64,000 nt of DNA from Escherichia phage vB_EcoM-P3322, in the sequence record PV191315.1; one strand, written 5' to 3'. Below are positions 990 through 63,973 of this stretch, in pieces; positions within the stretch are counted from its first letter, which is position 1; each line of letters starts with the position of its first letter. The translations under genes and the position numbers were made by a program. The notes below the pieces were generated by a model. That model did no database searches. It had not been told where the DNA came from and saw only the letters and a list, made by a program, of their open reading frames with translations.

Positions 990-1715
990 ATGATCGAGAA
1001 TTTTTTTAAAGATATTAAATTCGATACTGAATTTTTCAAAAATGCAGCAAAGCACGTGATTGATTGGAATGCCAAAGCACGCGGTGGTGAACAACCTGAA
1101 TTCACTCAAGAGCTATTTATGTCCCAAATCGGGTTCGTTCGTGAAGAGCTTAAAGAGTATGAAACAGCCGCGAAAGTAAACGATCATGTAGAACTCTTGG
1201 ATGCAGCAGCGGATATTTTTGTAGTATCCAGTTATCTGACTTACATGTTCTTTGGTGAAGAACATACGATGAATTTCTTGGACTATGCTGTAGGCGATGT
1301 TTTTACTCCAACTGTGTATACTGATTTTGATGCTTTGGAACAAACATTTACAGAGCCAGTTCAAATGGCACTAATGGCTGCTGGTATTATGCGTATGTCT
1401 CGTGACACTCTAATCCGTTCAAAATATCCAGAAAAGAAAGTTATTAAAGAGGTATTGAAAAGTAATGATTCCAAGTATCCAACTAAACAACAGTTGCTGA
1501 AAACTTGGAAAACTTCGGATATCGATTCAGCCATTGCACAAGAATGCGCTGCAATTGAAGAACGAAATGCCAATCGTCCAGAAGGGGCATACACTGGTGT
1601 TCATGCTGTTTATAATGAAAAACAGAAAGTGTATGTGTTCTTTGATGATAAAGGTAAGATCATGAAACCATCGACCTTTGTCAAACCTAATATTGCAGGT
1701 ATTATTAACAAGTAA
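990..1715 (+). CDS. putative MazG-like all-alpha NTP pyrophosphohydrolase
   Basis: RBS AAGGAG; acidic motif REELKEYE...ELLDAAADIFVV resembles MazG/dCTPase EExxE...D signature (recall only). Confidence 0.4.
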   Translation: MIENFFKDIKFDTEFFKNAAKHVIDWNAKARGGEQPEFTQELFMSQIGFVREELKEYETAAKVNDHVELLDAAADIFVVSSYLTYMFFGEEHTMNFLDYAVGDVFTPTVYTDFDALEQTFTEPVQMALMAAGIMRMSRDTLIRSKYPEKKVIKEVLKSNDSKYPTKQQLLKTWKTSDIDSAIAQECAAIEERNANRPEGAYTGVHAVYNEKQKVYVFFDDKGKIMKPSTFVKPNIAGIINK

Positions 1716-13104: not shown

Positions 13105-14097
13105 ATGCGCTATCTGGTAACAGGTGGTCTTGGTTTTATTGGGAGTGCCGTGGTGCGCTCTCTTTGTCAAGATCCTAATAACGAAGTTTTTGTCGTTGAT
13201 AAGATGGGCTATGCAGCAGATATTGAGAATGTAGGCGATATCACTCACGTTAAACTAAGCATGACAGATTTGGCAAACGAAACCCAGGTCAAAAGTTTAG
13301 TAGTAGAGTGCAATCCTGACTTCATCATTCACTTAGCGGCAGAAAGTCATGTGGATAATTCTATCAAGAATCCACGAGTTTTCATCGACTCCAATATTAT
13401 CGGTACATACAATTTATTGGAAGCTGCAAGGCTCCTCCCAAAAAATAAACTGAAGATGTTCGTACACGTCTCCACAGACGAAGTGTACGGCGATATGGCA
13501 GACTCTGGCGTTCCCTTTACCGAAGAGACAGCTTATGCCCCTTCAAGCCCGTACAGTGCGTCTAAAGCAGCATCTGACCATCTTGTGAAAGCTTGGCACC
13601 GCACCTACGATTTGCCTGTTGTGATAACCAACTGCTCCAATAACTTTGGGCCTTATCAACATCCAGAAAAGCTGATCCCAAAAATCATCACAAGTATCTT
13701 GACGAATAAAGAGATTCCGGTGTATGGTAAAGGCGACCAGGTGCGAGACTGGCTTTTTGTTGAGGATCATGCGCGAGCTATTCTTCAAGTGGCAACAGGT
13801 GGAGAACCAGGTCAAACGTATAATGTTGGAACACGTAATCCCAAAACCAATATGGAGATCATCTATATGGTTTGTGACTATATGGATACTGTACATCCAG
13901 AAGCAGTAACCTACCCTTCTTCCAACTTGATAACTTTTGTTGAAGATCGTAAAGGACATGACTTGCGTTATGAAATCAATCCTTCTAAGATAGAGTCTGA
14001 ACTGGGCTGGAGTGCAAACTCTACATTTGAACAAGATCTCTACTCAACGATTGAATGGTACTTAAACAACCCTCAATGGTGGAGTGAGAAAATTTAA
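13105..14097 (+). CDS. rfbB: dTDP-glucose 4,6-dehydratase
   Basis: [10 protein letters not shown] Rossmann motif, YSASK catalytic motif, RmlB-like length. Confidence 0.9.
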
Positions 14098-14105
14098 GGA
14101 GGGTT

Positions 14106-14984
14106 ATGAAAGGTATTATTTTGGCGGGAGGAAGTGGAACCCGCCTTCATCCGGTAACACGCAGTGTGAGCAAGCAATTGCTCCCTGTGTATGACAAACC
14201 CATGATCTACTACCCTTTATCGGTATTGATGTTGGCTGACATTAAGGATATTTTAATCATCACCACACCAGGTGATCAGGAAGACTTTCAGTATCTTCTC
14301 GGAGATGGGTCTATGTTTGGAATAAAACTCACTTACGCAATCCAATCCGAGCCACGAGGTCTTGCGGAAGCTTTCATCATAGGTAAAGATTTTATCGGAG
14401 AAGACTCTGTTGCTCTTATTTTAGGTGACAACCTATTCTTCGGACAAAGCTTTGGTAAACTACTGATTAACGCCAGTGAGATGGTAGATGTTTGGGGAGG
14501 AGCTTGTATTTTCGGGTATTTGGTGAAAGATCCTGAACGATTCGGTGTGGTTGAATTTGGGAGTAATCGTCAAGCTATTTCTATTGAAGAGAAACCTGAA
14601 AATCCTAAATCAGATTATGCTGTCACAGGTTTGTATTTCTATGATAACTCTGTTATTCAACGTGCATTAGAAGTAACCCCTTCCGCGCGTGGAGAACTGG
14701 AGATCACTGATATCAATCGCAGCTACCTAGAAGACAGGAAGTTACAAGTGGAAGTTCTCGGACGAGGATTTACTTGGCTTGACACAGGAACACACGCCAG
14801 TCTGATGGAAGCTGGTCAATTCGTGCAGACTATTGAGAACTGTCAAGGATTGAAGATTGCGTGCCTGGAAGAAATTGCTTTCAAAAAAGGGTGGATTTCT
14901 TTAGAGACTTTGGTGTATCATGGAAACTCACTGAAGAAAACAGAGTACGGGCAATACCTACTCAAATTAGCGGAGAGAAAATGA
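14106..14984 (+). CDS. rfbA: glucose-1-phosphate thymidylyltransferase
   Basis: [16 protein letters not shown]...[17 protein letters not shown] signature. Confidence 0.92.
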
Positions 14985-15547
14985 AAGTAGAAAAAACAAA
15001 AATTGAAGGTGCGGTAATTATCAAACCAGACGTTTATAAAGATGATCGTGGTTTCTTTCTAGAAACATATAATGAACAAAAATACGAAGATATTATTGGT
15101 AGACAAACTTTCGTTCAAGATAACATGTCTAAATCAAACTTCGGTGTTTTGCGAGGAATGCACTTTCAAACAAATAACCCGCAAGGTAAGCTAGTTCGTT
15201 GTGTAAGTGGGGAAGTATTGGATTTCGCTGTAGATTTACGTAAAGATAGTCCAACTTACGGTGCTTGGGACGGTGTTGTTCTTCGTGCACGACACCATAC
15301 GCAGTTTTGGCTTCCGCCTGGTTTGGCTCATGGTTTTATAGTTTTGAGTATGGATGCTATCTTTGAATACAAATGCACAACTCCATACGACCCTTCTAGT
15401 GAACAAAGTTTACGTTGGGATGATCCTGATATAGGGATCGATTGGGGCTTCGATATGATTTTTGACGAAGGTTTTAAACCTATTCTATCAACAAAAGATG
15501 CAATGGCTAAATCTTTTCAACAGTTACGTAGCGAGGGTGTATGCTAA
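14981..15547 (+). CDS. rfbC: dTDP-4-dehydrorhamnose 3,5-epimerase
   Basis: ATG overlaps rfbA stop (ATGA); RmlC-like DDRGFF and cupin motifs; track start 14861 is an upstream GTG. Confidence 0.88.
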
Positions 15548-16382
15548 CATATCTGGTATTGGGCGGTAATGGACAACTGGGACAAGCTTTACGTAAAGTG
15601 GCTCCTTCAAATGTATCTTTAATTTATCCTAAAGAACGTGTAGATATTACAAATTTTGAAGCTGTGCGAAACGCTATTATTGAAGATTATGTAGATGGTG
15701 TTATTAATTGCGCCGCTTATACGGCTGTAGATAAAGCAGAACATGATTTTGCTACTGCTTTGGCTGTTAATGCGTATGGACCTGCAAATATTGCGGCAGT
15801 GTGCAGCAAACTTAAAATTGATTTTGTGCATATTTCTACAGACTATATTTTTAATTATTCTCATCCTATTTTTGAAGATACTACACCTAACCCAATAAAC
15901 AATTATGGGTATACGAAAGAACTTGGTGAAAAATGGTGCGAGGAGTTAACCCAAATGCATATATTATTCGAACAGCCTCGGTATATAGCGAATTTGGAAA
16001 TAACTTTCTAAAAACCATGTTGTCTCGCTATAATGATGGACAACGTGATTTTATTATTGTTGCTGATCAGTTCTCTTGTCCAACATATGCTCCAGATTTA
16101 GCAGAAGCTATTTTTGAAGTATTAAAAACAGGTTGGTCAAGGTCTATTAAGACTTACCATTTTGCAGGAAGCCATCTTATTTCTTGGGCGGAGTTTGCGG
16201 AAAAGATCTTGACACAGATGCCAGAACCTGTTAAGATATCGGCGGTATCAGCTTCAACCTACAATGCTCCAGCAGCACGTCCGGTGAAGTCACAACTAGT
16301 AACCAGTCACTATCTTACAAAATCAGATTTAAATAAAGGTATTGAACAGTCTTTAGCAGTATTACTTAATAAGGAGAGGTAA
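15541..16382 (+). pseudogene. rfbD: dTDP-4-dehydrorhamnose reductase, interrupted by 1-nt frameshift in A5 run near 15928-15933
   Basis: N-terminal half (15541..16011) and C-terminal half (15933..16382) in different frames; together colinear with RmlD. Confidence 0.75.
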
Positions 16383-20799: not shown

Positions 20800-20994
20800 A
20801 TGCAGAGCGGAGAAGAACTTTTAGAGAAACAATTCTCAACGCGTCAACAAGCTTTAAGTTATATGGTTTTTCTAAGCAATCTTGATGTGAATGAGATACT
20901 TTTACGGCGCGAAGGTAATTTCTGGAGCGTTAAATATCATGCAACAAGGTCTGTAATCTACCTGGAAGAGGCGGAATTCTCTTTGGTAGAATGA
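20800..20994 (+). CDS. hypothetical protein
   Basis: RBS AAGGAGGG. Confidence 0.5.
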   Translation: MQSGEELLEKQFSTRQQALSYMVFLSNLDVNEILLRREGNFWSVKYHATRSVIYLEEAEFSLVE

Positions 20995-21008
20995 TCCGAG
21001 GAGTAGTT

Positions 21009-21581
21009 ATGCGTTCAACTTTCACTGGCAAAATAAATGCTGGTTTGATTTTTACAGCAGTAAGCATTCTTAGCAAAAAGTTTAAAGTTGTTAACTTACC
21101 TGTGTGTGTCGATTTCGATCATGTTTTTGATCCTTCGAACCCCACTCGTTGCATAGTAAGGAGTAATGTTGAAAACCCAACAGAAAATCTTTTTTATGTA
21201 ACAAAACCATCTCAAAGCATACTTAACCAGGTTGAGGCGAAATTGATACCTAACGGTAAATATTACTCCTTTTTACCTTGTAAGTCGGTTGAAGTAGAGA
21301 ATAGCAATACTTTCGCTAATAACTTGTCTGTATTCGTTTTCTTTGTTTCACAGGAAGACGAAACAGATGAAATGGTAGCAACAGTGAGATCACTTTATGA
21401 CTCTTTAGGGGTTGTTTATAGTCAACAAGTGTGCGAAAATAATAAAGCCTGTGTAGATTTCATTATCAACGGTATTTGTGTTTGTAGAGTAGAATCTTTT
21501 TGGCTGCACGATACATATGTGACTGTAGCAGAGGTTATATCTGAACCAAGATTTAGTCATGCGGTTTCGTTAATAATTTGA
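21009..21581 (+). CDS. hypothetical protein
   Basis: ATG 21009 after GAGGAG. Confidence 0.55.
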   Translation: MRSTFTGKINAGLIFTAVSILSKKFKVVNLPVCVDFDHVFDPSNPTRCIVRSNVENPTENLFYVTKPSQSILNQVEAKLIPNGKYYSFLPCKSVEVENSNTFANNLSVFVFFVSQEDETDEMVATVRSLYDSLGVVYSQQVCENNKACVDFIINGICVCRVESFWLHDTYVTVAEVISEPRFSHAVSLII

Positions 21582-21591
21582 GGAGGAAGGA

Positions 21592-21921
21592 ATGGAAATT
21601 ACTACAGAACAAGCCCTTATCGACGAGGGTCGTAAAATCTTAGAAAAGTATTTAGGGGAGATTCATAAAACCCCTGGCTATTTGGGTTGGAGAATTGTTG
21701 AAGCTGTAGATTTCCTTCCTCGTAACAGTAAAAACGTCGAAATGCGATCTCTTTTCTTATTAGTAAAGGTGGATGGGGATACGCCTTTTAAAGATGCCGC
21801 AGAACATATTGAAAAAGTTGAAGAGAAAGCTTATGCAGAATTTGCCGATCTTGTTTTAGAACAAGAGATTGAAGGAAAGGTGAATATTTTTATTTTCTTA
21901 GATTTTGAGGAGGATAAGTGA
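21592..21921 (+). CDS. hypothetical protein
   Basis: RBS GAGGAGGAAGG. Confidence 0.55.
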   Translation: MEITTEQALIDEGRKILEKYLGEIHKTPGYLGWRIVEAVDFLPRNSKNVEMRSLFLLVKVDGDTPFKDAAEHIEKVEEKAYAEFADLVLEQEIEGKVNIFIFLDFEEDK

Positions 21922-22661
21922 TCATACACAGAGAAATTACTGTTAAAAGCGATCAAGATCTTTTTATAATTGGAGATCTACACGGTTGTTATAATTTGTA
22001 TGAAAAAGGAAAGGCAAAGTTAGGTATCCGAGATACAGATGTGGTTGTATCTCTAGGAGATCTTACTGACCGTGGAAAGCAAAACTTTCGTTGTGTTTTA
22101 GAATTTACTCGTAAACACAATCGCTACGCTATTCGTGGCAATCATGAAGACATGATGATTAAAGGTATGCTGGAAGGAGATCGTAGCTACTACGAGTGTT
22201 GGTATCAAAATGGAGGATATACGGTCTTTGAAGAATGTGGTGAAGAAGGAGCTACAGCCTTAGCAATGATGACAGAAGATTTACCTGTTGTTCTCATTGT
22301 TAACTACAGAGGCATGAAACTTGCGTTTATTCATGGTGGGTATCCATCTTCTTTGGAATATCTCCCTGTAACAGATATTCCAGAATACATTTCGAAGATG
22401 ACAAAAACACAGGAAAACCGTTTTGCTGAAGCACTTATGTGGGACAGAGATATGGTAGACTGTGCTAAAGAGGGAATGAAACTTCCTGTTGTGATGGGTG
22501 TGGATTATGTGTTTCATGGACACTCTTATGTAAAAACACCTATTATCAATGCGAATCGTGTTTATATGGATACTGGATCTGTGTTCAATAATAACTTAAC
22601 ATTTGCTTATTTCGATATGGACGGTGGTCTTCAATTTTATTCAACTCTTGAGGAGGATTAA
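21918..22661 (+). CDS. Ser/Thr protein phosphatase (calcineurin-like metallophosphoesterase)
   Basis: GDLHG, GDLTDRG, GNHE motifs. Confidence 0.8.
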   Translation: MIIHREITVKSDQDLFIIGDLHGCYNLYEKGKAKLGIRDTDVVVSLGDLTDRGKQNFRCVLEFTRKHNRYAIRGNHEDMMIKGMLEGDRSYYECWYQNGGYTVFEECGEEGATALAMMTEDLPVVLIVNYRGMKLAFIHGGYPSSLEYLPVTDIPEYISKMTKTQENRFAEALMWDRDMVDCAKEGMKLPVVMGVDYVFHGHSYVKTPIINANRVYMDTGSVFNNNLTFAYFDMDGGLQFYSTLEED

Positions 22662-22969
22662 TGTATAAGATTACAATTATTCAAAGTGTAGGTAATATCC
22701 GTAAAGAAGTTATCTTAGAAACAGAAGATGTTAATCTTGTTCGTGAGATTGTTCTTAAGGAAGATAACCTGCAAGCTGTAGAATCAGATGCACCGAATCT
22801 TATGGTGGATCAAGAATATTCTGAACTTCGTCGTATTTTTGAAGAGATTCAGAAGAAAGAAACACAACCTACCATAAAACCTTTTGGTCCTTATGATCCG
22901 AGCAATCCTAGCAGTCCTTGGATCATGAGAAATACGGAACCCTATACACCTTTTGAAATTACTTGTTGA
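22661..22969 (+). CDS. hypothetical protein
   Basis: RBS GAGGAGG; ATG overlaps stop. Confidence 0.55.
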   Translation: MYKITIIQSVGNIRKEVILETEDVNLVREIVLKEDNLQAVESDAPNLMVDQEYSELRRIFEEIQKKETQPTIKPFGPYDPSNPSSPWIMRNTEPYTPFEITC

Positions 22970-22976
22970 GGTGATT

Positions 22977-23558
22977 ATGGCAGAACTGTTCTATACGGGA
23001 GTTGGAAGTAGGGACATATCTGAAGAAGAGTGGGCTTTGATGGTAGGCATAGGGAAATGGCTTTCAAACCTTGGGTTTAAATTACGGTCTGGGAAGGCAG
23101 AGGGTAGTGATTCTGCTTTTGAAACAGGTGTCCAAGAGTCTGAAAATCCTACTAACAAGGAGATTTATGTTCCTTGGGAAAATTTCAAAGGTAATCAGAT
23201 TCCAGGTGATGTTATTGTTCTTGCAAAACCAGATACAATGAACTATGCTATCTCTGTGCAATGGATCAAAGATGTTCACCCAGCTTATGAAAAGCTTAAG
23301 CAGGGTGCTAGAAAATTGCACCAACGTAATGTGCATCAAGTGTTAGGCAGAGATTTGGAGAATCCTGCTCCATCATGTTTCTTGTTGGCTTGTGCTAATA
23401 CTGATAAATATGGAGATGCAAAAGGTGGAACAGCTACGGCTTGGAAGATAGCTAAAGCCAATAATGTTCCTTGTTTAAACATTCGTGGGAAAACAAAACA
23501 AGAGATTTACGATTTTCTACGACCTTTGGTAATGAGGGCGATAACAAGTGATTCCTAG
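22977..23558 (+). CDS. DprA/SLOG-like Rossmann-fold protein
   Basis: GVGSRDIS...G..L..LGFKLRSGKAEGSDSA resembles DprA/LOG core; ATG 22977 after GAGGTGA. Confidence 0.45.
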   Translation: MAELFYTGVGSRDISEEEWALMVGIGKWLSNLGFKLRSGKAEGSDSAFETGVQESENPTNKEIYVPWENFKGNQIPGDVIVLAKPDTMNYAISVQWIKDVHPAYEKLKQGARKLHQRNVHQVLGRDLENPAPSCFLLACANTDKYGDAKGGTATAWKIAKANNVPCLNIRGKTKQEIYDFLRPLVMRAITSDS

Positions 23559-24060
23559 ACGTAAACGTGGTGAACAAAGAACAAACTTGGCAGAAATCTT
23601 AGATTACAACATGGTTAATGATGTGACAAAAGAAATTCTGCCTGTTGTAGAAGATATTCTTCGTAGAGGGTTACGATTCTGCTCGGATCGGGTGCATTTC
23701 ATGTGGACACATAAAAGTGACTCCGCTTTGAATTTCTATCCTTTGGACTATACTCTGAACAATACAGAGATGAAAGATATCAACAAATATTTAATGGGAT
23801 ATAAAGATATAACCGAAACTGTTCTTGGAGAATTGGCAGAAATCTTGGCTAACGATATCCTTAGAAATATTAATAAGGCTCTTGACAGAAGCCCAGCAGG
23901 AGTAGTAATATCTTTTGCTGTGCCAGATATGGTTAAATATGAGTCTACAATACCTAATAAAGCTTATGCCTTTCTTCGGAGAGACGTTCGTGGAAATGTG
24001 TTGGAGATGGAGTCAAACTACAAGATTGAGGAGGTTTTATGGCAGAGTTCGGATCAGTAA
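23548..24060 (+). CDS. hypothetical protein
   Basis: Track ORF; start uncertain (ATG 23608 alternative). Confidence 0.5.
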   Translation: MIPRRKRGEQRTNLAEILDYNMVNDVTKEILPVVEDILRRGLRFCSDRVHFMWTHKSDSALNFYPLDYTLNNTEMKDINKYLMGYKDITETVLGELAEILANDILRNINKALDRSPAGVVISFAVPDMVKYESTIPNKAYAFLRRDVRGNVLEMESNYKIEEVLWQSSDQ

Positions 24061-24329
24061 CAAGTTTTGAAAGTAACTTCGTTACCGCTTGGGAAGCTTG
24101 GGATGAAATGGGTGTTGGGGAACTTTATTTTTACAATGTAACACTACGCCCAGAATATGCTTACCTGGTACCAGAAGGAACAGTTCAAATTGGCATGTAT
24201 TTGTCTTCTCAAGACGGTGTTGTTCAATTTGAGTTTTATTCTAACACAACGGACAACGAATTTACATACCGCGCATTTCATGTCAACATGTCTTTAGGAG
24301 AGGAGAAATTTTATGACGACCAAGTTTAA
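24039..24329 (+). CDS. hypothetical protein
   Basis: RBS GAGGAGG. Confidence 0.5.
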   Translation: MAEFGSVTSFESNFVTAWEAWDEMGVGELYFYNVTLRPEYAYLVPEGTVQIGMYLSSQDGVVQFEFYSNTTDNEFTYRAFHVNMSLGEEKFYDDQV

Positions 24330-24510
24330 AACAGTAGAAGAAGCCGTAAAAGCAGCTTATGAGGCTTTAGCGGAAGCAGAGCAGTTAGCAGACGAGACTG
24401 GTGAAGGTTTCAGTTTCTCCCCTGAATATGGGATGGGTGGTTATTATGATCCAGAAGATGAAAATGAGAATACTGGAACAAATTGGCATCCATCTTCTTT
24501 AAGTTGTTAA
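24313..24510 (+). CDS. small acidic protein, C-terminal W-x-SS-x-C motif family
   Basis: RBS GGAGAGGAG; C-terminus NWHPSSLSC. Confidence 0.5.
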   Translation: MTTKFKTVEEAVKAAYEALAEAEQLADETGEGFSFSPEYGMGGYYDPEDENENTGTNWHPSSLSC

Positions 24511-24521
24511 TAGGAGGTAAA

Positions 24522-24791
24522 GTGGGAATCGAAGATATCAAAGGTTATAAACCGCATACCGATGACAAAATTGGTAAAGTGAATGCTATTAAAGATGCTG
24601 AAGTTCGATTAGGATTAATCTTTGATGCTCTAATGTCTGAATTGTGGGCTGAACTGGATGATTGTGAAGATTTGGAAGAGTCTACCAATATATCCACCCG
24701 CCTTGACCAAATTTCAATAGCAAAGACTAAGTTGAAAGAAGCTTCTATGTGGGCCTGTCGTTCCGTTTTCCAACCAGAGGAGAAATACTAA
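24522..24791 (+). CDS. hypothetical protein
   Basis: GTG 24522 after TAGGAGG; track start 24483 lacks RBS. Confidence 0.45.
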   Translation: MGIEDIKGYKPHTDDKIGKVNAIKDAEVRLGLIFDALMSELWAELDDCEDLEESTNISTRLDQISIAKTKLKEASMWACRSVFQPEEKY

Positions 24792-25009
24792 TGAGTTATC
24801 GTAATGTTGAAGAATTAACTGAAAAAGCCCAAGCTATTATGGCTTTGGTGGACGAACTTACAAAAGAAGCTGAAGATGCTGGTTTTGGTCTTAGTTTAGA
24901 AGATGACGCAATCTGTTTTGAAGATTGGCAATCCTCTTCTTGTTATGGTGAAGGTGATGATGGTTTCGTTGTTAATTCTCAAGGCGTTTGGCACAGTAGT
25001 AGCTGTTAA
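24791..25009 (+). CDS. small acidic protein, C-terminal W-x-SS-x-C motif family
   Basis: RBS AGAGGAG; C-terminus GVWHSSSC. Confidence 0.5.
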   Translation: MSYRNVEELTEKAQAIMALVDELTKEAEDAGFGLSLEDDAICFEDWQSSSCYGEGDDGFVVNSQGVWHSSSC

Positions 25010-25018
25010 GGAGAGATT

Positions 25019-25291
25019 GTGGAGTCTGAAGGCGAACTGCTGATAAAAAAGAAAGTTAAAGAGATGGAACAAGCACAAAGAAAGTTTCGTAAGGAAATTG
25101 AAGAACTTTGTGAACAGTTTCAGGAACAAGCTTGGATAGGTGACTACGGTAACGGAGAAACTTATTACCCTACAGGAACGCCAGCCGCAGATCACTATAT
25201 TGATTTCATTTGTGAAGATTATGGTGTAGAGTTGGATGAAAATGGTTTAACCACAAGAGGTGTTTGGATCTCTTCTTCCTCAATGTGTTAG
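25019..25291 (+). CDS. small acidic protein, C-terminal W-x-SS-x-C motif family
   Basis: RBS AAGGAGAG; C-terminus GVWISSSSMC. Confidence 0.5.
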   Translation: MESEGELLIKKKVKEMEQAQRKFRKEIEELCEQFQEQAWIGDYGNGETYYPTGTPAADHYIDFICEDYGVELDENGLTTRGVWISSSSMC

Positions 25292-25299
25292 TAAATAAT

Positions 25300-25322
25300 A
25301 ACCCGCTTCGGCGGGTTTTTTA
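25300..25322 (+). terminator. rho-independent terminator
   Basis: aacccgc-ttcg-gcgggtt then tttttt. Confidence 0.7.
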
Positions 25323-25351
25323 TTGACAGGAATCTGGAAGCTTGATAAACT
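25323..25351 (+). promoter_or_regulatory. sigma70-like promoter
   Basis: TTGACA-17nt-TAAACT. Confidence 0.6.
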
Positions 25352-25381
25352 TAACCTATCAACCAATAGAGGAGAAATATT

Positions 25382-26323
25382 ATGGTGTTAATTGGTAGCC
25401 GTGCATTACAAATTCATGCTATGGACATGGGAAAAGACTTGTATCGCCCTTGTGTAGATTTAGATTACCTGTGTACAGAACAAGAGTGGGAAGAATTATC
25501 AAAAATGTTCTCTCAAGACGAGTTTGTTGAACTTGTAGAACGTAAAGGGAACAAAGGCCATGTCAAAATGATAGCTGGTGCACATTTGGAATACGATATT
25601 GCTTCTCAAGGAGATAGCACAGAAGCTTTGATTAGTTATTGTGAAGATTCTGATGATGTTCGTCGAACTTACGCTGGACATGTTGTTGCTCCTTTAGATG
25701 TGCTCTACCTTCTTAAAATGAGTCATCGTTTTAAAAAGGATAGTCCTCACTTCTTTAAAACTATGAAAGATATTCATTTCATGCGGTCACTGGGCGCAAA
25801 GATCCCAGAAAATCTTAAGAGTATTTATGAGTTGCGTGAGAAAGAAACATACACTTACTCTCATCCTAACTTAAACGTAAAAAGTAAAGAGTTCTTTAAA
25901 GGTGACGAGGTTCCGTATGTTTATGATCATGATTCTATCCATGAAGCAATCGCGTTAATGGATGCTCCAGCATATAAATCTTATATGAAAGATGGAAGTG
26001 AAGTTATGACCAGCAAAGAAAAGTTTTTTGCTCAACCAAAACATGTGCGCCTGTTAGGTGTTTATGAAGAAGCGTGTGTTTTGGCTTTGGAACGTTCACA
26101 AATTCCTTTCGGTGGAGAGATCGGAGGTCCAACCCCTAAGCAAAGTTTTATAATGGCTTTATCTAAAGTCTGCACATCCATCACTAGTGGTTGGTTTAGG
26201 GAATATGCTTGGGAAAACTTTTATGTTGTTATTAAGCTATATGAAAACATGGGCGAAAACGACTATGTTGAACGTTTTAAAGCTAATCAACATGTAGTAA
26301 AGCCTTTTGAAGGAGGTTATTAA
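25382..26323 (+). CDS. hypothetical protein (possible Pol-beta-type nucleotidyltransferase fold)
   Basis: RBS AGAGGAG; N-terminal IGSRA...DLD pattern, weak. Confidence 0.55.
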   Translation: MVLIGSRALQIHAMDMGKDLYRPCVDLDYLCTEQEWEELSKMFSQDEFVELVERKGNKGHVKMIAGAHLEYDIASQGDSTEALISYCEDSDDVRRTYAGHVVAPLDVLYLLKMSHRFKKDSPHFFKTMKDIHFMRSLGAKIPENLKSIYELREKETYTYSHPNLNVKSKEFFKGDEVPYVYDHDSIHEAIALMDAPAYKSYMKDGSEVMTSKEKFFAQPKHVRLLGVYEEACVLALERSQIPFGGEIGGPTPKQSFIMALSKVCTSITSGWFREYAWENFYVVIKLYENMGENDYVERFKANQHVVKPFEGGY

Positions 26324-26324
26324 T

Positions 26325-26720
26325 ATGTGTGGATATCTTTCAGAAAGTTATTTCAAAGTGACGCATGAGGATTTAGAAAAAGCACGATTGAAACTGACAG
26401 CTATTATTGAATACTCTAATACTGTTGAACACAGATTAAAGACTACTAAAGTATCTGTTCCTTGTTGGTTAGGTTTACGGCATAAAATAATGTCTCAACA
26501 TGACCATGTTGTTCGAGAGATGCATGGTTGGTGTTGGTTTCACGATGTGGCTCTGCATTTTGGTTATATTACAGAAGAAGAGCATAGATTCTGTGAACTA
26601 ACATATCGTATTCCAACCCTTCACGATTTAGATTTGTGGAAGAAAGCAAACGAGATTTTTCTTACAGAAAGTGATTGGCGTAAAGTTATGGCTTGTCTTG
26701 AATGGAGGGGTAATGAGTAA
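26325..26720 (+). CDS. hypothetical protein
   Basis: ATG 26325 after GAAGGAGG. Confidence 0.5.
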   Translation: MCGYLSESYFKVTHEDLEKARLKLTAIIEYSNTVEHRLKTTKVSVPCWLGLRHKIMSQHDHVVREMHGWCWFHDVALHFGYITEEEHRFCELTYRIPTLHDLDLWKKANEIFLTESDWRKVMACLEWRGNE

Positions 26721-27396
26721 AACAGTTTTGTCTATGTTTGACGGATCTGGGATCATGGTGTTACGTTATGCCGAAGCAGGTCACAAGTGTTTTTGTGTAA
26801 ACGCTGATGAAGGGGATCACGGTAAATACGAGGTTAGGATGGAGCACCCAAACATAACCTATGTGAATGCCTGGATAGATTCTACATTCAACCCTGAAGA
26901 TCATGGGATACCTAAACCCGATATTATTTTTGGATTTCCACCTTGCACTATGTTAGCAGGTAGTGGTAGCAAACACGAACGTAGCACAGAGGAATTAGAT
27001 GAAGCTTTAGCTAATATTCGTGTAGTGGAAGCTTTGGGTAACAAATATAATGTTCCTTGGATGATTGAAAACCCAGTAGGTAAACTTTCAACCTTATGGC
27101 GTAAACCCGATTTTTACTTTGATCCTTATGAGTATGGTGGGTATTTGTTTGAAGAGGAAGGAAGCTTTCATCCTAAAATGCCTACCCGTGATGGGTATAC
27201 AAAGAAAACTTGTATTTGGCACGGCAATGGTTTTGTTCAACCAGTGAAGAAACCAGTAGATCATATAGGCTGCTTCTGGGGTTGGAAAAGCTTAGGCGGA
27301 GCTAGTGCAAAAACAAAACAACTTAGATCCCTAACCGCACGTGGTTTTGCTCGTGCCGTGTTTTTGTCTAACAATCTTCTAGATAAGGAGAAATAA
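26713..27396 (+). CDS. C5-methyltransferase-like protein (short, PPCT in place of PCQ)
   Basis: FDGSG (motif I-like), FGFPPCT (motif IV-like), ENPVG (motif VI-like); ATG 26713 after GGAGGGG. Confidence 0.5.
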   Translation: MSKTVLSMFDGSGIMVLRYAEAGHKCFCVNADEGDHGKYEVRMEHPNITYVNAWIDSTFNPEDHGIPKPDIIFGFPPCTMLAGSGSKHERSTEELDEALANIRVVEALGNKYNVPWMIENPVGKLSTLWRKPDFYFDPYEYGGYLFEEEGSFHPKMPTRDGYTKKTCIWHGNGFVQPVKKPVDHIGCFWGWKSLGGASAKTKQLRSLTARGFARAVFLSNNLLDKEK

Positions 27397-28049
27397 TGTC
27401 AAATTCAAAACCAATAGTTGCTTATCAAGTAGATCGTAATGATGGTGAAGGAAGTGTTATTATTTTCAGTACACACGGTCTTGAGGCTCGTCGAAAAGGT
27501 GCATATCGTTTAGAATGTGAGTTTGAAGACTGCACAAGCCACCGTGTCAAACAATTCGATCAATATGCTGATAAAGGCTTCGTCCCTATCAAAGCCTTAC
27601 TGGAAGATGGTTGGTGGGTATATTCTGCTTTTGATTACTCAAGACTGGAGGAGTCAGCCTCGTGCGCCTCCGAGATCGAATATGATGATTACTATGACAC
27701 TCTCTACCTTCCAGAATGGCTTGTCTTTTCTCCTGATGAAAGAAGTGTCTGGAAAACGTGGGAAGAAATGGAGAGACATGCATATAGCATCAATGAAGCT
27801 TTAGATCGTAAAGCTTGGTTTATTGAGGCAGTAAAGGCGGCATACCCCCAATTCTCATTCTGTGATTTCACTGGTGGCCCAGGATACATTACACATACAG
27901 CCTCTTTTGAGTTCCCTGGTTCACGTTATAAGGGTAATGTTTATTGGGACTGGGATGAAAATAAACAACCTTCGGCTCAAGACTTCCGTTGCTATGTTTG
28001 TCAAGGCGATCAAGAAGCCCTTGACAAATACCTACAAAGTCTGGTATAG
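27396..28049 (+). CDS. hypothetical protein
   Basis: RBS AAGGAG; ATG overlaps stop. Confidence 0.55.
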   Translation: MSNSKPIVAYQVDRNDGEGSVIIFSTHGLEARRKGAYRLECEFEDCTSHRVKQFDQYADKGFVPIKALLEDGWWVYSAFDYSRLEESASCASEIEYDDYYDTLYLPEWLVFSPDERSVWKTWEEMERHAYSINEALDRKAWFIEAVKAAYPQFSFCDFTGGPGYITHTASFEFPGSRYKGNVYWDWDENKQPSAQDFRCYVCQGDQEALDKYLQSLV

Positions 28050-28065
28050 TGCCAGCATCTGAACA

Positions 28066-28096
28066 AAGCCTCCTGTTTCAGGGGGCTTTTCTTTTA
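28066..28096 (+). terminator. stem-loop terminator
   Basis: agcctcc-tgtttca-gggggct then ttttctttt. Confidence 0.6.
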
Positions 28097-28107
28097 TAGG
28101 AGGGAAT

Positions 28108-28593
28108 ATGTTTCAAGTAAATGTCAATGTGCATAATAGTTACTCTGATTGTGAAACGTGTGGCTATAATTCATCTAATGTTATTCGTATTAGTGGCGAT
28201 TTAGGAGAAGCTTCTTTTGGAGAAGAAGCAAGTTGCTTTAGTGGTATGGATGCAGAATGGAATGATATTGCACATTGGTTAGTGAGCAAACTAAAAGAAA
28301 AAGAGAAACCATTTCCTACTCTGCTTGATCGTTCTCTTGTGGAAGATGCAGGTAAAGCATATGCAGACTATGCGTATGCAGACGGGAAATATTTGGAAGA
28401 TGATAAGGCTAACCATTTGCTTTATGTTTACTATGAAGCTGAATCTGCCTACGATAATTATTACAGCATGTCTAACATCCTACGTCTGTTTGCAGAGTTT
28501 GATATTTATTTCGAAGTAGAATTTTCAGAAGATGATACTTACGAGTACAATTCTTATGATCCATTTGAGGAGGAAGAATGCCAAGACGAGTGA
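28108..28593 (+). CDS. hypothetical acidic protein
   Basis: RBS AGGAGGG. Confidence 0.55.
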   Translation: MFQVNVNVHNSYSDCETCGYNSSNVIRISGDLGEASFGEEASCFSGMDAEWNDIAHWLVSKLKEKEKPFPTLLDRSLVEDAGKAYADYAYADGKYLEDDKANHLLYVYYEAESAYDNYYSMSNILRLFAEFDIYFEVEFSEDDTYEYNSYDPFEEEECQDE

Positions 28594-29393
28594 TTTTTGT
28601 AAGCGGTGCAGGTTTAAGTGCAGACAGTGGGATTCGAACATTTAGAACAGACACAGATAGTGGTCGTGCTTTATGGGAAGAATATGATTTAGAAGAGGTC
28701 TGCGATATTGGAGCTTTCCAGGCAGGTTATCGTGTTAGAACATCTCCAGATCTTCCAGTGGTCGGTGGTGTAGACGAGAACGGTATGGATTTGTATGCCA
28801 AAACACACGAATTTTATAACAAAAGACGTGTTGAGCTTAAAGATGTACAACCTAATGCTGCACATATTCAAATAGCAAAGTGGTTTAAGGAATATCCTAA
28901 CCAAATAGTAAACTTGACAACAAACGTTGATGATCTACTAGAGCGAGCAGGTGTAGACAGAGATTCTGTTATTCACGTACACGGATATCTTCCTGAAGTA
29001 GTTTACCGTATGCATCCTGGAGATTACAAAACACTGGTAGATATTGGTTACAATAGTATAAACATAGATGATTATAACTGGGTGAAGCCTAATGTTGTAT
29101 TTTTTGGTGAGGCTGCACCTTTGTATGCAGATATGGCTCACTTGTTTGATACTTTGACCATGCAAGATTTGGTTGTTGTAGTGGGATGTTCAAACCAAGT
29201 TATCAATTTTAATTGGGAATTGTTCCCTGCACTTAGTATGGGTACAAAAATGATTGTTGTTAACCCAGGAATTAATTACGAAGAAACTCTTCTTTACGAA
29301 GATAGAGGAGTCTTTGTTTACCGAGAAAAAGCTGCAACAGCCTTCAGTAATGAAGGTTTCATTAAAATGGTCGAAGACCACTTAAACAAATAA
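28578..29393 (+). CDS. Sir2-family (sirtuin-like) NAD-binding protein
   Basis: GAGLSADSGIRTFR and TTNVDDLLERAG...HVHG resemble Sir2 motifs; RBS GAGGAGGAAG. Confidence 0.7.
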   Translation: MPRRVIFVSGAGLSADSGIRTFRTDTDSGRALWEEYDLEEVCDIGAFQAGYRVRTSPDLPVVGGVDENGMDLYAKTHEFYNKRRVELKDVQPNAAHIQIAKWFKEYPNQIVNLTTNVDDLLERAGVDRDSVIHVHGYLPEVVYRMHPGDYKTLVDIGYNSINIDDYNWVKPNVVFFGEAAPLYADMAHLFDTLTMQDLVVVVGCSNQVINFNWELFPALSMGTKMIVVNPGINYEETLLYEDRGVFVYREKAATAFSNEGFIKMVEDHLNK

Positions 29394-29401
29394 ACCACTC
29401 A

Positions 29402-29425
29402 AGGGGCTTCGGCCCCTTTCTTATT
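29402..29425 (+). terminator. rho-independent terminator
   Basis: aggggc-ttcg-gcccct then tttcttatt. Confidence 0.7.
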
Positions 29426-29436
29426 AGGAGAATAAA

Positions 29437-29709
29437 ATGACTGAAGAAATCCGTGATTACTACCTTGCACATTACGTTTACTACTTTGCTAATGCTACAC
29501 AAAAAGGGGAAGGTAATCTTTACTTGGCAACAGGACATGGAACAGGCGTTAGGAAATCAAATATTGATAATGCCTTGGCTCAAGTGGCTGCGGGGCTAGA
29601 AGATAAACTTCAAACACCTGTAGTTGTAGTGATGCAAAATATAAGTTACCTAGCAAGTTGTACTGAAACCGAATTTAACGCGTCTGAGACGCAATCTAAC
29701 GAAGAATAA
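29437..29709 (+). CDS. hypothetical protein
   Basis: RBS TAGGAG. Confidence 0.55.
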   Translation: MTEEIRDYYLAHYVYYFANATQKGEGNLYLATGHGTGVRKSNIDNALAQVAAGLEDKLQTPVVVVMQNISYLASCTETEFNASETQSNEE

Positions 29710-29712
29710 AAC

Positions 29713-29745
29713 AAAGGCACCCAAGTGGGTGCCTTTTCTATTTTA
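29713..29745 (+). terminator. rho-independent terminator at end of + strand block
   Basis: ggcaccc-aagt-gggtgcc then ttttctatttt. Confidence 0.65.
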
Positions 29746-29778: not shown

Positions 29779-30009
29779 TTACTTGTGTAGTGCTCTCTCG
29801 TATAACTCAATGATCAATTCATCCTCTACTGTAATACGCGCCATTTGATCCGTCTTAAGTATTGTTGGTTGGTAGTGGTGCATTTCACTATTGATACTGC
29901 AATCCCATTCGTCATAACCTAAATACTCTCCTACATGGACCTTAACCATAAAGGGAAACGGGTTATCTACCAAAAATGCCATACAACCTTCTTCGATTTT
30001 ATTTAACAC
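29779..30009 (-). CDS. hypothetical protein
   Basis: Track ORF; first gene of minus block. Confidence 0.45.
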   Translation of the reverse strand: MLNKIEEGCMAFLVDNPFPFMVKVHVGEYLGYDEWDCSINSEMHHYQPTILKTDQMARITVEDELIIELYERALHK

Positions 30010-62833: not shown

Positions 62834-63973
62834 TCAGAATACGCTACCCAGGGTAGTGGAACGTTGTGTTACAGGCTCCAGCACCACTCGCAGAGTGTTT
62901 CCTGGTGTAGTGCTCATAACCAGAATCTTACCACCTTCAATCAGATCACAAGTTAGACCATCAGCCGTTGCACATAGATCAATATGTGGATCACCATCTT
63001 CATCCAGGATAACATAACTGTTGGTTTCCATTGCTTCCACTTCATCATCTTTCAAACTTTGTAGATAGATGTTCAGGGAACAAGCACCCGACAAAAACTT
63101 AGTAGGGGTGAAGTCGTGCCAGTTATTGATCCAATTCACCTTCAGCGTTTTGCCATTAGCTACGATAGAAGCCACATTCCATTTAGCATCGTTGCCTAAA
63201 GAAATACCCATCATTTCAAGACATTCTTTAAAAGTCATTTTTGGATAGAAATTCAATTCTTCTACAATACCTTGAATAACATCGAAAGACAACTCTGTGC
63301 TAACATCCCATAAACGTTGGAAGTTATCTACGTGTTTTTTATTTACCAAGTTCTTATCCAAGTAATCTAACATAGTTTCACTAGACAGTTTATCGTAATT
63401 GAAACTGTAATAGATACGACTAGGACGGTTTACAAAATATTCCGAGATATAACCACTATTTTTAGTTAGGATGTAAAGTTTATTCCCACTTCCTGTTCCA
63501 TCCAACAAGGTCAACAGTGCTTCCTGATCTTCTTTCTTAGCGTACACTTTATCAAATTCGTCAAATAAAACAACAGCACGATCTGTAATTTTACTCATAA
63601 ATTCTAAGAAGCCAGCATCTGTGTAAGGCTGTGTAACCAAAATGGTTGGAATACCTAAACCTTCTGTGGACATTAGGGACATGCTAATTAGTTTAGCTAA
63701 CATCGTCTTACCACTGCCTTTTGTGCCTGTCAGTAACACCCCAGTATTTTTACCTTCTTTACTACGACGAGCAAATGTTTTAATAACATGTGCGGCGCGG
63801 TCTTTAGTTTCCCCATAAAGAGTGTTCGGAAGAGAGAAACTTTCGCCACGCACTAAAGAGTAGTTACCGTGCGGATCGCAGTTGACAACCCAAACTCCAG
63901 CAGGAAGTTTATTAGCTTCAACACCATATTCCTTATTTACAACAGCCACATCTCCAAAAATAGTGTATTTCAT
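62834..63973 (-). CDS. AAA+/P-loop ATPase (possibly clamp-loader/RFC-like)
   Basis: Walker A GTKGSGKT, Walker B VVLFDEFD; motif order resembles T4 gp44 (recall only); RBS AAAGGAGAAAC. Confidence 0.6.
   Translation of the reverse strand: MKYTIFGDVAVVNKEYGVEANKLPAGVWVVNCDPHGNYSLVRGESFSLPNTLYGETKDRAAHVIKTFARRSKEGKNTGVLLTGTKGSGKTMLAKLISMSLMSTEGLGIPTILVTQPYTDAGFLEFMSKITDRAVVLFDEFDKVYAKKEDQEALLTLLDGTGSGNKLYILTKNSGYISEYFVNRPSRIYYSFNYDKLSSETMLDYLDKNLVNKKHVDNFQRLWDVSTELSFDVIQGIVEELNFYPKMTFKECLEMMGISLGNDAKWNVASIVANGKTLKVNWINNWHDFTPTKFLSGACSLNIYLQSLKDDEVEAMETNSYVILDEDGDPHIDLCATADGLTCDLIEGGKILVMSTTPGNTLRVVLEPVTQRSTTLGSVF

Follow-up and report, generated by a model that had tools for sequence, protein, structure and literature searches.

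Which kind of enzyme is encoded by the sirtuin-like gene of Escherichia phage vB_EcoM-P3322, and on which substrate would it act? We studied this gene in a stretch of 64,000 nucleotides from sequence record PV191315.1 (the window). An earlier note, made from the sequence alone, had placed a phage-encoded Sir2-like protein in the open reading frame (ORF) 28578-29393 on the plus strand and had quoted the peptides GAGLSADSGIRTFR, TTNVDDLLERAG (residues 114-125) and HVHG (residues 133-136). The ORF, encoding 271 aa, is as described and all quoted peptides are present. Its phage origin was confirmed as well, as a 4-kb stretch around the gene shares 99.0% identity with Phapecoctavirus genomes, e.g. 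vB_EcoM_Schickermooser (NC_048196). Phapecoctaviruses are phAPEC8-like E. coli myoviruses of the subfamily Stephanstirmvirinae. From its sequence, the gene is predicted to encode a catalytically competent sirtuin that consumes nicotinamide adenine dinucleotide (NAD+) and that is a phage-restricted, zinc-free offshoot of the class III (CobB/SIRT5-like) sirtuins.

The protein matched the Pfam family SIR2 (PF02146; E 1.9e-22, 80.5 bits against a gathering cut-off of 24) and, over residues 2-271, PHROG 2162 'Sir2 (NAD-dependent deacetylase)' (E 2e-104). Its best sequence match in the PDB was E. coli CobB (1s5p; E 8e-19), followed by Sir2Af and SIRT5. These scores put the sirtuin likeness far above chance. 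An AlphaFold2 model built with 39 homologues was confident (mean predicted local distance difference test score (pLDDT) 90.3, predicted template modelling score 0.87), and its Rossmann-fold large domain and small domain superposed on solved sirtuins. The profile and structure checks proposed in the earlier note therefore agree with its Sir2 assignment. CobB was also the top match when the model was searched against the PDB with Foldseek (E 6e-17, template modelling score 0.85 on the target), with Sir2Af1/Af2 and SIRT5 next. The structural comparison figures were 14.7 for SirTM, 14.3 for SIRT6 and 9.3-13.5 for the defence NADases PsSIR2, SIR2-HerA, KomC, ThsA and Avs5; the phage protein is structurally nearer to the deacylases than to SirTM or SIRT6.

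Assignment to a defence-type Sir2 or anti-Thoeris family was considered and rejected. PADLOC gave no significant match, the sole one (PDC-S65; E 0.017, 12.4 bits) covering 37 residues. In addition, a fused or adjacent defence partner (SLOG, HerA, pAgo/APAZ, STAND or KomB) is absent, the gene encoding a single-domain protein with other neighbours, and the structural similarity to the defence enzymes is lower. What the phage protein has in common with defence SIR2 NADases (ThsA, DSR1/2, SIR2-HerA/Nezha, SPARSA, Avs5 and KomC) is the Rossmann core and the use of NAD+ as substrate; a canonical zinc ribbon is missing in both. Together, the structural ranking and the negative PADLOC result identify a class III-like sirtuin and not a defence-type Sir2, and this firm placement with the class III deacylases rather than the defence NADases is one of the things that our analysis adds. 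The earlier note had also suggested a role in counteracting NAD-based defence. Nothing links the gene to Thoeris-type systems, and an enzyme that consumes NAD cannot restore it; the domain call of the note is right, but this suggestion has no support, and its interpretation is thus supported in part.

We then compared individual residues in an alignment of 64 clade sequences (35-100% identity) and in 144 diverse representatives from an exhaustive search. Invariant in all 64 sequences were G10, A11, G12, S17, G18, F22, R23, Y80, P92, N93, H96, N116, D118, H135, G136, F176, E178, G203, S205 and N229. The loss of the catalytic His or Asn, named in the note as a refutation, was not seen on alignment: H135 and N116 were retained in 144/144 representatives, and D118 in 139/144. 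R83 was invariant among the 39 closer homologues (set A1) and is Leu in members resembling the sirtuin of Serratia phage BF, while the Y-x-x-R motif was present in 44 of the 55 zinc-less representatives. The canonical GTS is G(C/S/A)S in the clade. Thr replaced the Gln of the TQN position in 34/55 zinc-less versus 9/89 zinc-containing representatives. The two most distant viral matches, on the jumbo-phage contigs L067 and L068, are ordinary sirtuins with TQN and CxxC...CxxC, and they bracket the zinc-less clade. The protein thus combines an intact sirtuin active site with a confident sirtuin fold and is, as shown below, under purifying selection. The small domain is remodelled. Positions 34-78 hold 45 residues compared to 23 in the phmmer alignment with CobB, and the extra region varies among alleles yet was modelled confidently, as judged by pLDDT per block. 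Where the zinc ribbon would be, the model has beta strands at residues 136-144, 152-155 and 168-173. Coordinates of these and other features are collected in Table 1.

Table 1. Features of the window referred to in the text, in window positions.
Feature	Position	Strand	Remarks
MazG/PRA-PH-like pyrophosphohydrolase	990-1715	+	31% identical to the gene directly downstream of the rV5-like sirtuin
dTDP-rhamnose biosynthesis set (RmlA/B/C/D-like)	13105-16011	+	from the annotation of the 99%-identical relative, by comparison with L001/L002
DUF7277+DUF7275 protein	25382-26323	+	E 1e-75; in Phapecocta-like loci, ~3 kb 5' of the sirtuin
Promoter-like site	28021-28050	+	precedes hairpin 28065-28089
Terminator-like hairpin	28065..28089	+	5' of the two-gene unit (161-aa ORF and sirtuin)
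Upstream ORF, 161 aa, PHROG 9509	28108..28593	+	16-nt overlap with the sirtuin start
Shine-Dalgarno GGAGG	28569..28573	+	strong ribosome-binding site 4 nt 5' of ATG 28578, within the 3' end of the upstream ORF
Exchanged cassette	28576..29441	+	gene plus terminator; 92.6% nt identity to Justusliebigvirus Paula
Sirtuin coding sequence	28578..29393	+	ATG start, 271 aa, ~30.8 kDa, pI 4.83; zinc-less class III-like, PHROG 2162
NAD-binding motif GAGLSADSGIRTFR, residues 10-23	28605..28646	+	G10, A11, G12, S17, G18, F22 and R23 invariant in the clade
Small-domain region, residues ~47-75	28716..28802	+	~22 extra residues compared to CobB and most relatives
Class III Y-x-x-R motif, Y80-N-K-R83	28815..28826	+	aligned with CobB YNAR
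T114-T115-N116-V117-D118	28917..28931	+	nicotinamide-pocket Asn and Asp retained; Thr instead of the canonical Gln of TQN(I/V)D
Catalytic His135-Gly136	28980..28985	+	aligned with the CobB catalytic HG
Cysteine-free segment, residues 137-171	28986..29090	+	35 residues in place of the zinc ribbon
F176-G177-E178	29103..29111	+	substrate-clamping FGE loop
G203-C204-S205	29184..29192	+	counterpart of the canonical GTS (NAD ribose/phosphate binding)
N229	29262..29264	+	adenine-ribose binding Asn, invariant
Terminator-like hairpin	29401..29418	+	intrinsic type, directly 3' of the sirtuin stop codon
Serine-recombinase Resolvase N-terminal domain protein, 225 aa	36223-36900	-	PF00239, E 5e-18
NADAR-domain protein, 180 aa	60675-61217	-	PF08719, E 7.7e-36, 124 bits against a cut-off of 35
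CapR homology domain protein, 332 aa	61766-62764	-	PF21817, E 4.6e-22; weak treble-clef zinc-finger match

In the reaction that we propose, NAD+ would be bound across GAGxS, R23, S205 and N229, with the nicotinamide held by N116 and D118. An oxygen of the substrate would attack C1' and expel nicotinamide, after which His135 would activate a ribose hydroxyl and the intermediate would be resolved to an O-linked ADP-ribose product. As the substrate we rank acyl-lysine on proteins first (deacetylase/deacylase), with roughly an even chance of being correct. This ranking is based on the retained FGE loop, Y-x-x-R motif and catalytic His, which are hallmarks of deacylases, on the nearest structures, which are all deacylases, on the acidity of the clade members examined (all pI 4.6-5.7), and on the position of the gene apart from RNA-repair genes in at least two lineages, that of the window and that of Vibrio phage nt-1. 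An acidic protein would suit an enzyme working on lysine-rich protein surfaces better than one gripping RNA, although this is a weak argument, as the pI of a whole protein is a weak proxy. The Y-x-x-R motif is known from SIRT5 and CobB, and in SIRT5 its Tyr and Arg bind the acidic acyl group; because of Y80 and R83, acidic acyl groups such as succinyl might be preferred. The enzyme would act on host or phage proteins, expressed from a block of genes for nucleotide metabolism and replication.

Two related deacylases differ from the phage protein in several respects. E. coli CobB (PDB 1S5P, 6RXJ), a lysine deacetylase/desuccinylase, is 27% identical and has in common with it the motifs GAGxS, xSGIxTFR, Y-x-x-R, PNxxH, xNxD, HG, FGE, GxS and N. 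The phage protein, however, lacks the zinc cysteines and the N-terminal extension, has Thr for the Gln of TQN and carries the additional small-domain residues, and its clade is phage-restricted. Since the substrate-facing small domain is remodelled and variable among alleles, the substrate range probably differs from that of host CobB. Human and zebrafish SIRT5 (desuccinylase/demalonylase/deglutarylase) share its fold (Foldseek E ~5e-15) and likewise carry the Tyr-x-x-Arg pair, but are only ~19% identical and possess a Cys4 zinc site.

Comparison of related genomes revealed that the gene moves as a unit. In Phapecoctavirus ASO2A, most neighbouring proteins are 97.5-100% identical to those of the window and the product of a 217-aa ORF is 89% identical, whereas the sirtuin is just 70.7% identical. 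The divergent patch extends from the start codon to approximately codon 232 (the first ~700 nt of the cassette), with 98-100% nucleotide identity on both sides. Reciprocally, positions 28576-29441 are the only high-identity stretch in phi92-like phage Paula (Phi92_gp038), where the flanks are 70% identical or less, or unalignable. The sirtuins of Paula and of the IMG/VR contigs L010 and L011 are 97% identical to that of the window, while the proteins flanking the sirtuin on L010/L011 are merely 25-75% identical to those of the window. The reciprocal pattern in Justusliebigvirus points to recombinational exchange. Old functional alleles are thus swapped as a discrete cassette between genera of the Stephanstirmvirinae.

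Within the divergent patch, the synonymous divergence (dS) between the window and ASO2A alleles was 3.06, which is saturated, and the ratio of nonsynonymous to synonymous divergence (dN/dS) was 0.07; for the flanking genes, dS was 0-0.04, except for 0.40 in the 217-aa ORF. A dN/dS of 0.07 at a dS of ~3 indicates that the protein is constrained and not decaying. Positive selection as the source of the 71% allele was rejected, given the saturated dS, the low dN/dS and the reciprocal pattern in Justusliebigvirus. The positions at which the alleles differ are concentrated at residues 45-71, 87-113 and 123-168, in the small domain that faces the substrate, and the last 39 residues are identical. 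On the sequence level, this clustering is compatible with alleles that would differ in substrate choice. That the sirtuin gene is an exchangeable cassette under purifying selection is a new observation.

The gene is an already annotated member of an already described phage sirtuin clade. Annotated Phapecoctavirus proteins are up to 99.6% identical and are named 'Sir2-like protein', 'NAD-dependent protein deacetylase of SIR2 family' or 'Sir2-like transferase'. Searching with the sirtuin by tblastn, we found a homologue in 983 phage records, mostly from Escherichia, Salmonella, Klebsiella and Vibrio. The majority are T5-like Demerecviridae; the others are Phapecoctavirus, Justusliebigvirus, rV5-like Vequintavirinae, Klebsiella/Proteus Mydo-like myoviruses, KVP40-like Vibrio phages and some jumbo phages. 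At E 1e-30, just 26 clusters (50% identity) were recovered among 1.84 billion representatives. No cellular clade member was detected in 185,579 species-representative genomes, in a scan with two specific peptide patterns that distant relatives could escape. The host labels look doubtful for the records named Campylobacter phage (A150, A13b) and Acinetobacter phage vB_AbaM_ABPW7, which share ~99% identity with Phapecoctavirus or rV5-like genomes of E. coli phages.

Iyer, Burroughs, Anantharaman and Aravind (2022; PMC9503650) described most viral sirtuins as a distinct clade that is widespread in phages of Proteobacteria, with Serratia phage BF, Escherichia phage V5/Proteus phage Mydo and Escherichia phage SP15 as prototypes. 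The window protein is 52% identical to the sirtuin of SP15, 47% to the rV5 group and 37% to that of BF. It is a direct member of this clade (PHROG 2162, pVOG VOG1363, GenBank 'Sir2-like protein' of phAPEC8, phi92 gp038, rV5, T5-like and KVP40-like phages), with the same zinc-less TTNVD architecture. From gene neighbourhoods, Iyer et al. predicted a KptA/Tpt1-like removal of RNA 2'-phosphates (PMC9503650, section 3.7.3). Skliros et al. (2016; PMC5107563) modelled a Vibrio phage copy, noted that its zinc site is missing and that the catalytic His is kept, and proposed deacetylation and thereby activation of host acetyl-CoA synthetase. The Vibrio proteins (Sir2/CobB of KVP40, phiSt2, phiGrn1 and nt-1) are homologues with 36-38% identity to the window protein. 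They were tied by these authors to NAD salvage (NadV/NatV-type genes), whereas the phage of the window has no detectable nicotinamide phosphoribosyltransferase (NAMPT) or nicotinamide mononucleotide adenylyltransferase (NMNAT).

Since the published prediction relies on gene neighbourhoods, we surveyed ±10 kb around each sirtuin in 59 viral-contig loci and annotated representatives, with partner domains confirmed by Pfam. At the rV5/Mydo-like loci (~14), polynucleotide kinase (PNK), cREC (PF20274), a T4-type RNA ligase (Rnl), a calcineurin-like phosphoesterase (PE) and a MazG-like gene lie at most 4 kb away. RNA ligase, cREC, sirtuin and MazG-like gene stand in a row with PNK and phosphoesterase divergent, NAMPT is often ~6 kb off, and tRNA clusters are close. 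The T5-like loci (~35) have NrdD and PhoH upstream of the sirtuin and, in ~30 of them, the HAD_SAK_2 'Swiss-army-knife RNA repair' phosphatase (PF18143) ~1 kb downstream, followed by two DUF7415 genes. Around the sirtuin of Serratia BF and a few others, we found an NMNAT-like gene, NAMPT, an Acb1-like 2H phosphodiesterase (PF23474) and a Nudt16-like Nudix-cREC fusion. The BF gene at L007 4281-4727, annotated as 'RNA ligase', matches the anti-CBASS Acb1 family PF23474 (E 3.6e-15) over the generic 2'-5' RNA ligase family, and this neighbourhood could be an anti-defence/NAD island rather than an RNA-repair island.

The Phapecocta-like loci (~9) have a different content, namely a Dcm-type methyltransferase, the DUF7275/DUF7277 protein and ORFs of 217, 161 and 90 aa. 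No RNA-end-processing gene was found within ±6 kb of the window sirtuin, the nearest being a Metallophos gene at -6.7 kb, and the window contains neither a tRNA gene nor a homologue of the rV5 ligase, kinase or phosphoesterase. A NAMPT, NMNAT, HAD_SAK, 2H or Nudix partner was likewise not detected in the phage of the window. The 99%-identical phage Schickermooser nevertheless has all members of the rV5-type module clustered together, namely cREC (54% identity), ligase (48%), kinase (43%) and phosphoesterase (35%). The cluster lies just past the left edge of the window, with ten tRNA genes and a MazG-like gene nearby; its distance to the sirtuin is 27-30 kb. The MazG-like gene at the left end of the window stays by the RNA-repair cluster and the DNA ligase, and the sirtuin is 27 kb off. 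The rV5-like, T5-like and BF-like phages therefore have a real RNA-repair linkage, which the Phapecocta lineage lacks. There, the sirtuin is the one member that departed from the module: co-occurrence in the genome remains, operonic coupling does not. This lineage-by-lineage census, with the linkage absent at the window locus, is new here. In Vibrio phage nt-1, no match to any of the RNA-repair queries turned up within ±5 kb of the sirtuin; its record has annotations for a MazG-like pyrophosphatase and a metallo-phosphoesterase at ~4 kb to either side. A conserved upstream partner was also considered and rejected, as the small ORFs at the sirtuin start in five lineages are mutually unrelated, save for cREC in rV5 and BF.

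Several observations weigh against a plain protein deacylase. The NCBIfam CobB-type models all scored far below their curated cut-offs (106 versus 243, 86.1 versus 320 and 84.6 versus 318 bits). As noticed before, a four-cysteine zinc module is missing: the whole protein contains only C42 and C204, and none of its residues 137-171 is Cys. Canonical deacylase sirtuins need the zinc module for stability and activity, and its absence together with the replaced Gln of TQN could mean an altered activity. The tight linkage to RNA-end processing in three other lineages (~14 rV5/Mydo loci, ~30 T5-like loci and phage BF) is not explained by protein deacylation. Moreover, Koyuncu et al. (2014; PMC4271551) showed a restriction of T4 and lambda-vir by host CobB, so that the gain of a CobB-like activity by a phage is not obviously adaptive. 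The literature searched, in which most subscription journals were not covered, held no experimental characterisation of any phage member.

The RNA linkage is what the proposal of Iyer et al. would explain, in which the sirtuin moves ADP-ribose from NAD+ to the 2'-phosphate of RNA (tRNA) cleaved by metal-independent nucleases, so that the phosphate leaves as ADP-ribose 1'',2''-cyclic phosphate. The sirtuin would thereby serve a Tpt1/KptA-like function in cooperation with enzymes of the phage (RNA ligase, kinase, cREC, HAD or phosphoesterase). We consider this possible, at clearly lower probability than deacylation. The prediction was published for exactly this clade (PMC9503650), the linkage was reproduced independently in our survey with cREC_REC (PF20274) and HAD_SAK_2 (PF18143) confirmed by Pfam, and the Phapecoctavirus genome holds the whole module and ten tRNA genes. 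The chemistry appears plausible by analogy, as in both reactions an oxygen nucleophile would attack C1' and a 2'-OH would then attack an electrophilic centre. Without the zinc ribbon and with its small domain remodelled, the enzyme could have a differently shaped substrate cleft, and Y80/R83 could in principle hold a phosphate. However, the sirtuin is unlinked in the lineage of the window, ~27-30 kb from cREC/PE/Rnl/PNK and beside phage-only ORFs and the Dcm-type methyltransferase, and nt-1 is likewise without matches nearby. The proteins of the clade are acidic, their conserved active-site residues are indistinguishable from those of lysine deacylases, and the NAMPT linkage fits any NAD-consuming activity, because every sirtuin reaction releases nicotinamide. 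The likeness to Tpt1/KptA is a proposed functional analogy only (2'-phosphate removal via an ADP-ribosylated intermediate); its fold is ART-like and unrelated, with no homology to the phage sirtuin. The T4-type Pnkp/Rnl1 pathway leaves no 2'-phosphate junction, hence the need for such an enzyme is doubtful, and no sirtuin is known to act on RNA. Because, by chemical analogy, the catalytic machinery would permit it and three lineages show a strong linkage, action on nucleic acids is a viable reading, with no positive support at the window locus. We regard it as rather unlikely, a little more so than the published proposal itself, that the zinc-less phage sirtuins would be no protein deacylases but the first sirtuins to act on nucleic acids, taking the 2'-phosphate off nuclease-damaged tRNA, with the interchangeable alleles of the Stephanstirmvirinae as specificity variants, each suited to the anticodon nucleases or RNA-targeting defences of different hosts.

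Other uses of NAD+ appear less probable still. Mono-ADP-ribosylation, in which modification of a protein (of host or phage) or of a nucleic acid would serve host takeover or switch off a defence protein, would have models in SirTM, the side activities of SIRT4/6 and T4 Alt/Mod. The GenBank label 'Sir2-like transferase' in phi92 and Paula, the exchange of the cassette between genera and the small-domain variation, which resemble host-interaction genes, and an ADP-ribose-processing NADAR gene in the same genome speak for it. This is improbable, though, for a protein nearer to deacylases than to SirTM or SIRT6 that keeps the deacylase-specific Y-x-x-R, FGE loop and catalytic His and shows no sign of positive selection. 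Neither the operonic macrodomain partner of SirTM nor a closest structural likeness to SirTM was found: no macrodomain is present in the ten nearest plus-strand ORFs scanned (window 20991-29709), no other eraser adjoins the sirtuin, and NADAR lies 32 kb off on the opposite strand. There is an even slimmer chance that the enzyme acts on NAD+ or nicotinamide mononucleotide as small molecules, either as an NAD glycohydrolase, which would adjust the NAD/nicotinamide pool or else remove or generate a signal derived from ADP-ribose, or as a CobT-like phosphoribosyltransferase, as first ascribed to CobB. In ~11 loci, NAMPT and/or NMNAT genes are found at a distance of 2-9 kb from the sirtuin, among them that of Serratia BF, with the Acb1-like 2H phosphodiesterase and Nudix next to the sirtuin; defence sirtuins are NADases, and the KVP40 copy was first described with a role in NAD hydrolysis, according to Skliros et al. 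(PMC5107563). On the other hand, the protein has no PADLOC match, lower structural similarity to NADase sirtuins and the conserved protein-substrate features FGE and Y-x-x-R, and a constitutive NADase would hurt phages without NAD salvage, like that of the window. Finally, the lost zinc site and the scores below the NCBIfam equivalog cut-offs might suggest an inactive relic of a captured bacterial cobB in decay. The conservation data effectively exclude this: the ORF is intact in hundreds of genomes from several phage families, no catalytic residue changes even among sequences as little as 35% identical, dN/dS is low at saturated dS, the AlphaFold2 model is confident and the gene has its own ribosome-binding site and terminator. 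Protein lysine deacylation therefore stays first among these readings.

As a sequence feature, the sirtuin gene is ordinary, being correctly annotated in near-identical genomes and belonging to a catalogued phage family. What gives it weight is that ~1000 virulent phage genomes of several lineages (T5-, rV5-, phAPEC8/phi92- and KVP40-like, some jumbo) keep a sirtuin under strong purifying selection, and that the two published ideas predict different things, activation of a host enzyme by deacetylation versus Tpt1-like RNA repair. As host CobB itself acts against phages and NAD+ is central to the conflict over phage defence, the function of the gene would bear on phage takeover of host acylation, on tRNA repair or on NAD economy. 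Interest would rise sharply if a nucleic-acid-directed activity were true. The natural allele swaps on an otherwise isogenic backbone are directly comparable and provide a practical handle.

The 161-aa ORF and the sirtuin gene are bounded by two terminator-like hairpins, and a terminator is annotated at the same place after the sirtuin in Schickermooser, ASO2A and Paula. As the Shine-Dalgarno sequence of the sirtuin lies inside the 3' end of the 161-aa ORF, translation of the two may be coupled. The 161-aa product is acidic (pI 4.05, 37 D+E versus 10 K+R) and Tyr-rich; it occurs in Phapecocta-like phages only and is not a clade-wide partner of the sirtuin. Further upstream, the 217-aa ORF (27396-28049, plus strand; dS 0.40 and dN 0.067 compared to ASO2A) adjoins the sirtuin even in phages whose sirtuin is 46-53% identical, and fold searches with its product gave generic cystatin/NTF2-like matches only. 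This ORF contains a second mosaic patch (27758-27998), with 60-86% nucleotide identity to ASO2A versus 96-100% around it. The DUF7277+DUF7275 protein is encoded again in the distant Vibrio phage nt-1 (L008 1843-2604), 2.8 kb upstream of its sirtuin, and has no sequence relative in the PDB; by eye, its N-terminus (LIGSRA...VDLDY) looks like the G-S...DxD motif of nucleotidyltransferases.

The sirtuin is the penultimate gene of the long plus-strand block of nucleotide metabolism and replication genes, and its location in an early block, as given in the earlier note, is plausible. This block (1-29709) meets the minus-strand block (29779-64000) at a perfect bidirectional hairpin, the terminator at 29713-29736. 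The GC skew changes sign near 30000, from +0.13 to -0.14, at the same point as the strands converge. Besides the predicted NAD-consuming sirtuin, the phage encodes a potential ADP-ribose eraser, the NADAR-domain protein, 32 kb away on the opposite strand. The CapR-domain gene adjoins the NADAR gene and an AAA ATPase gene (62834-63973). The resolvase-domain gene sits among small early-type ORFs of this virulent myovirus.

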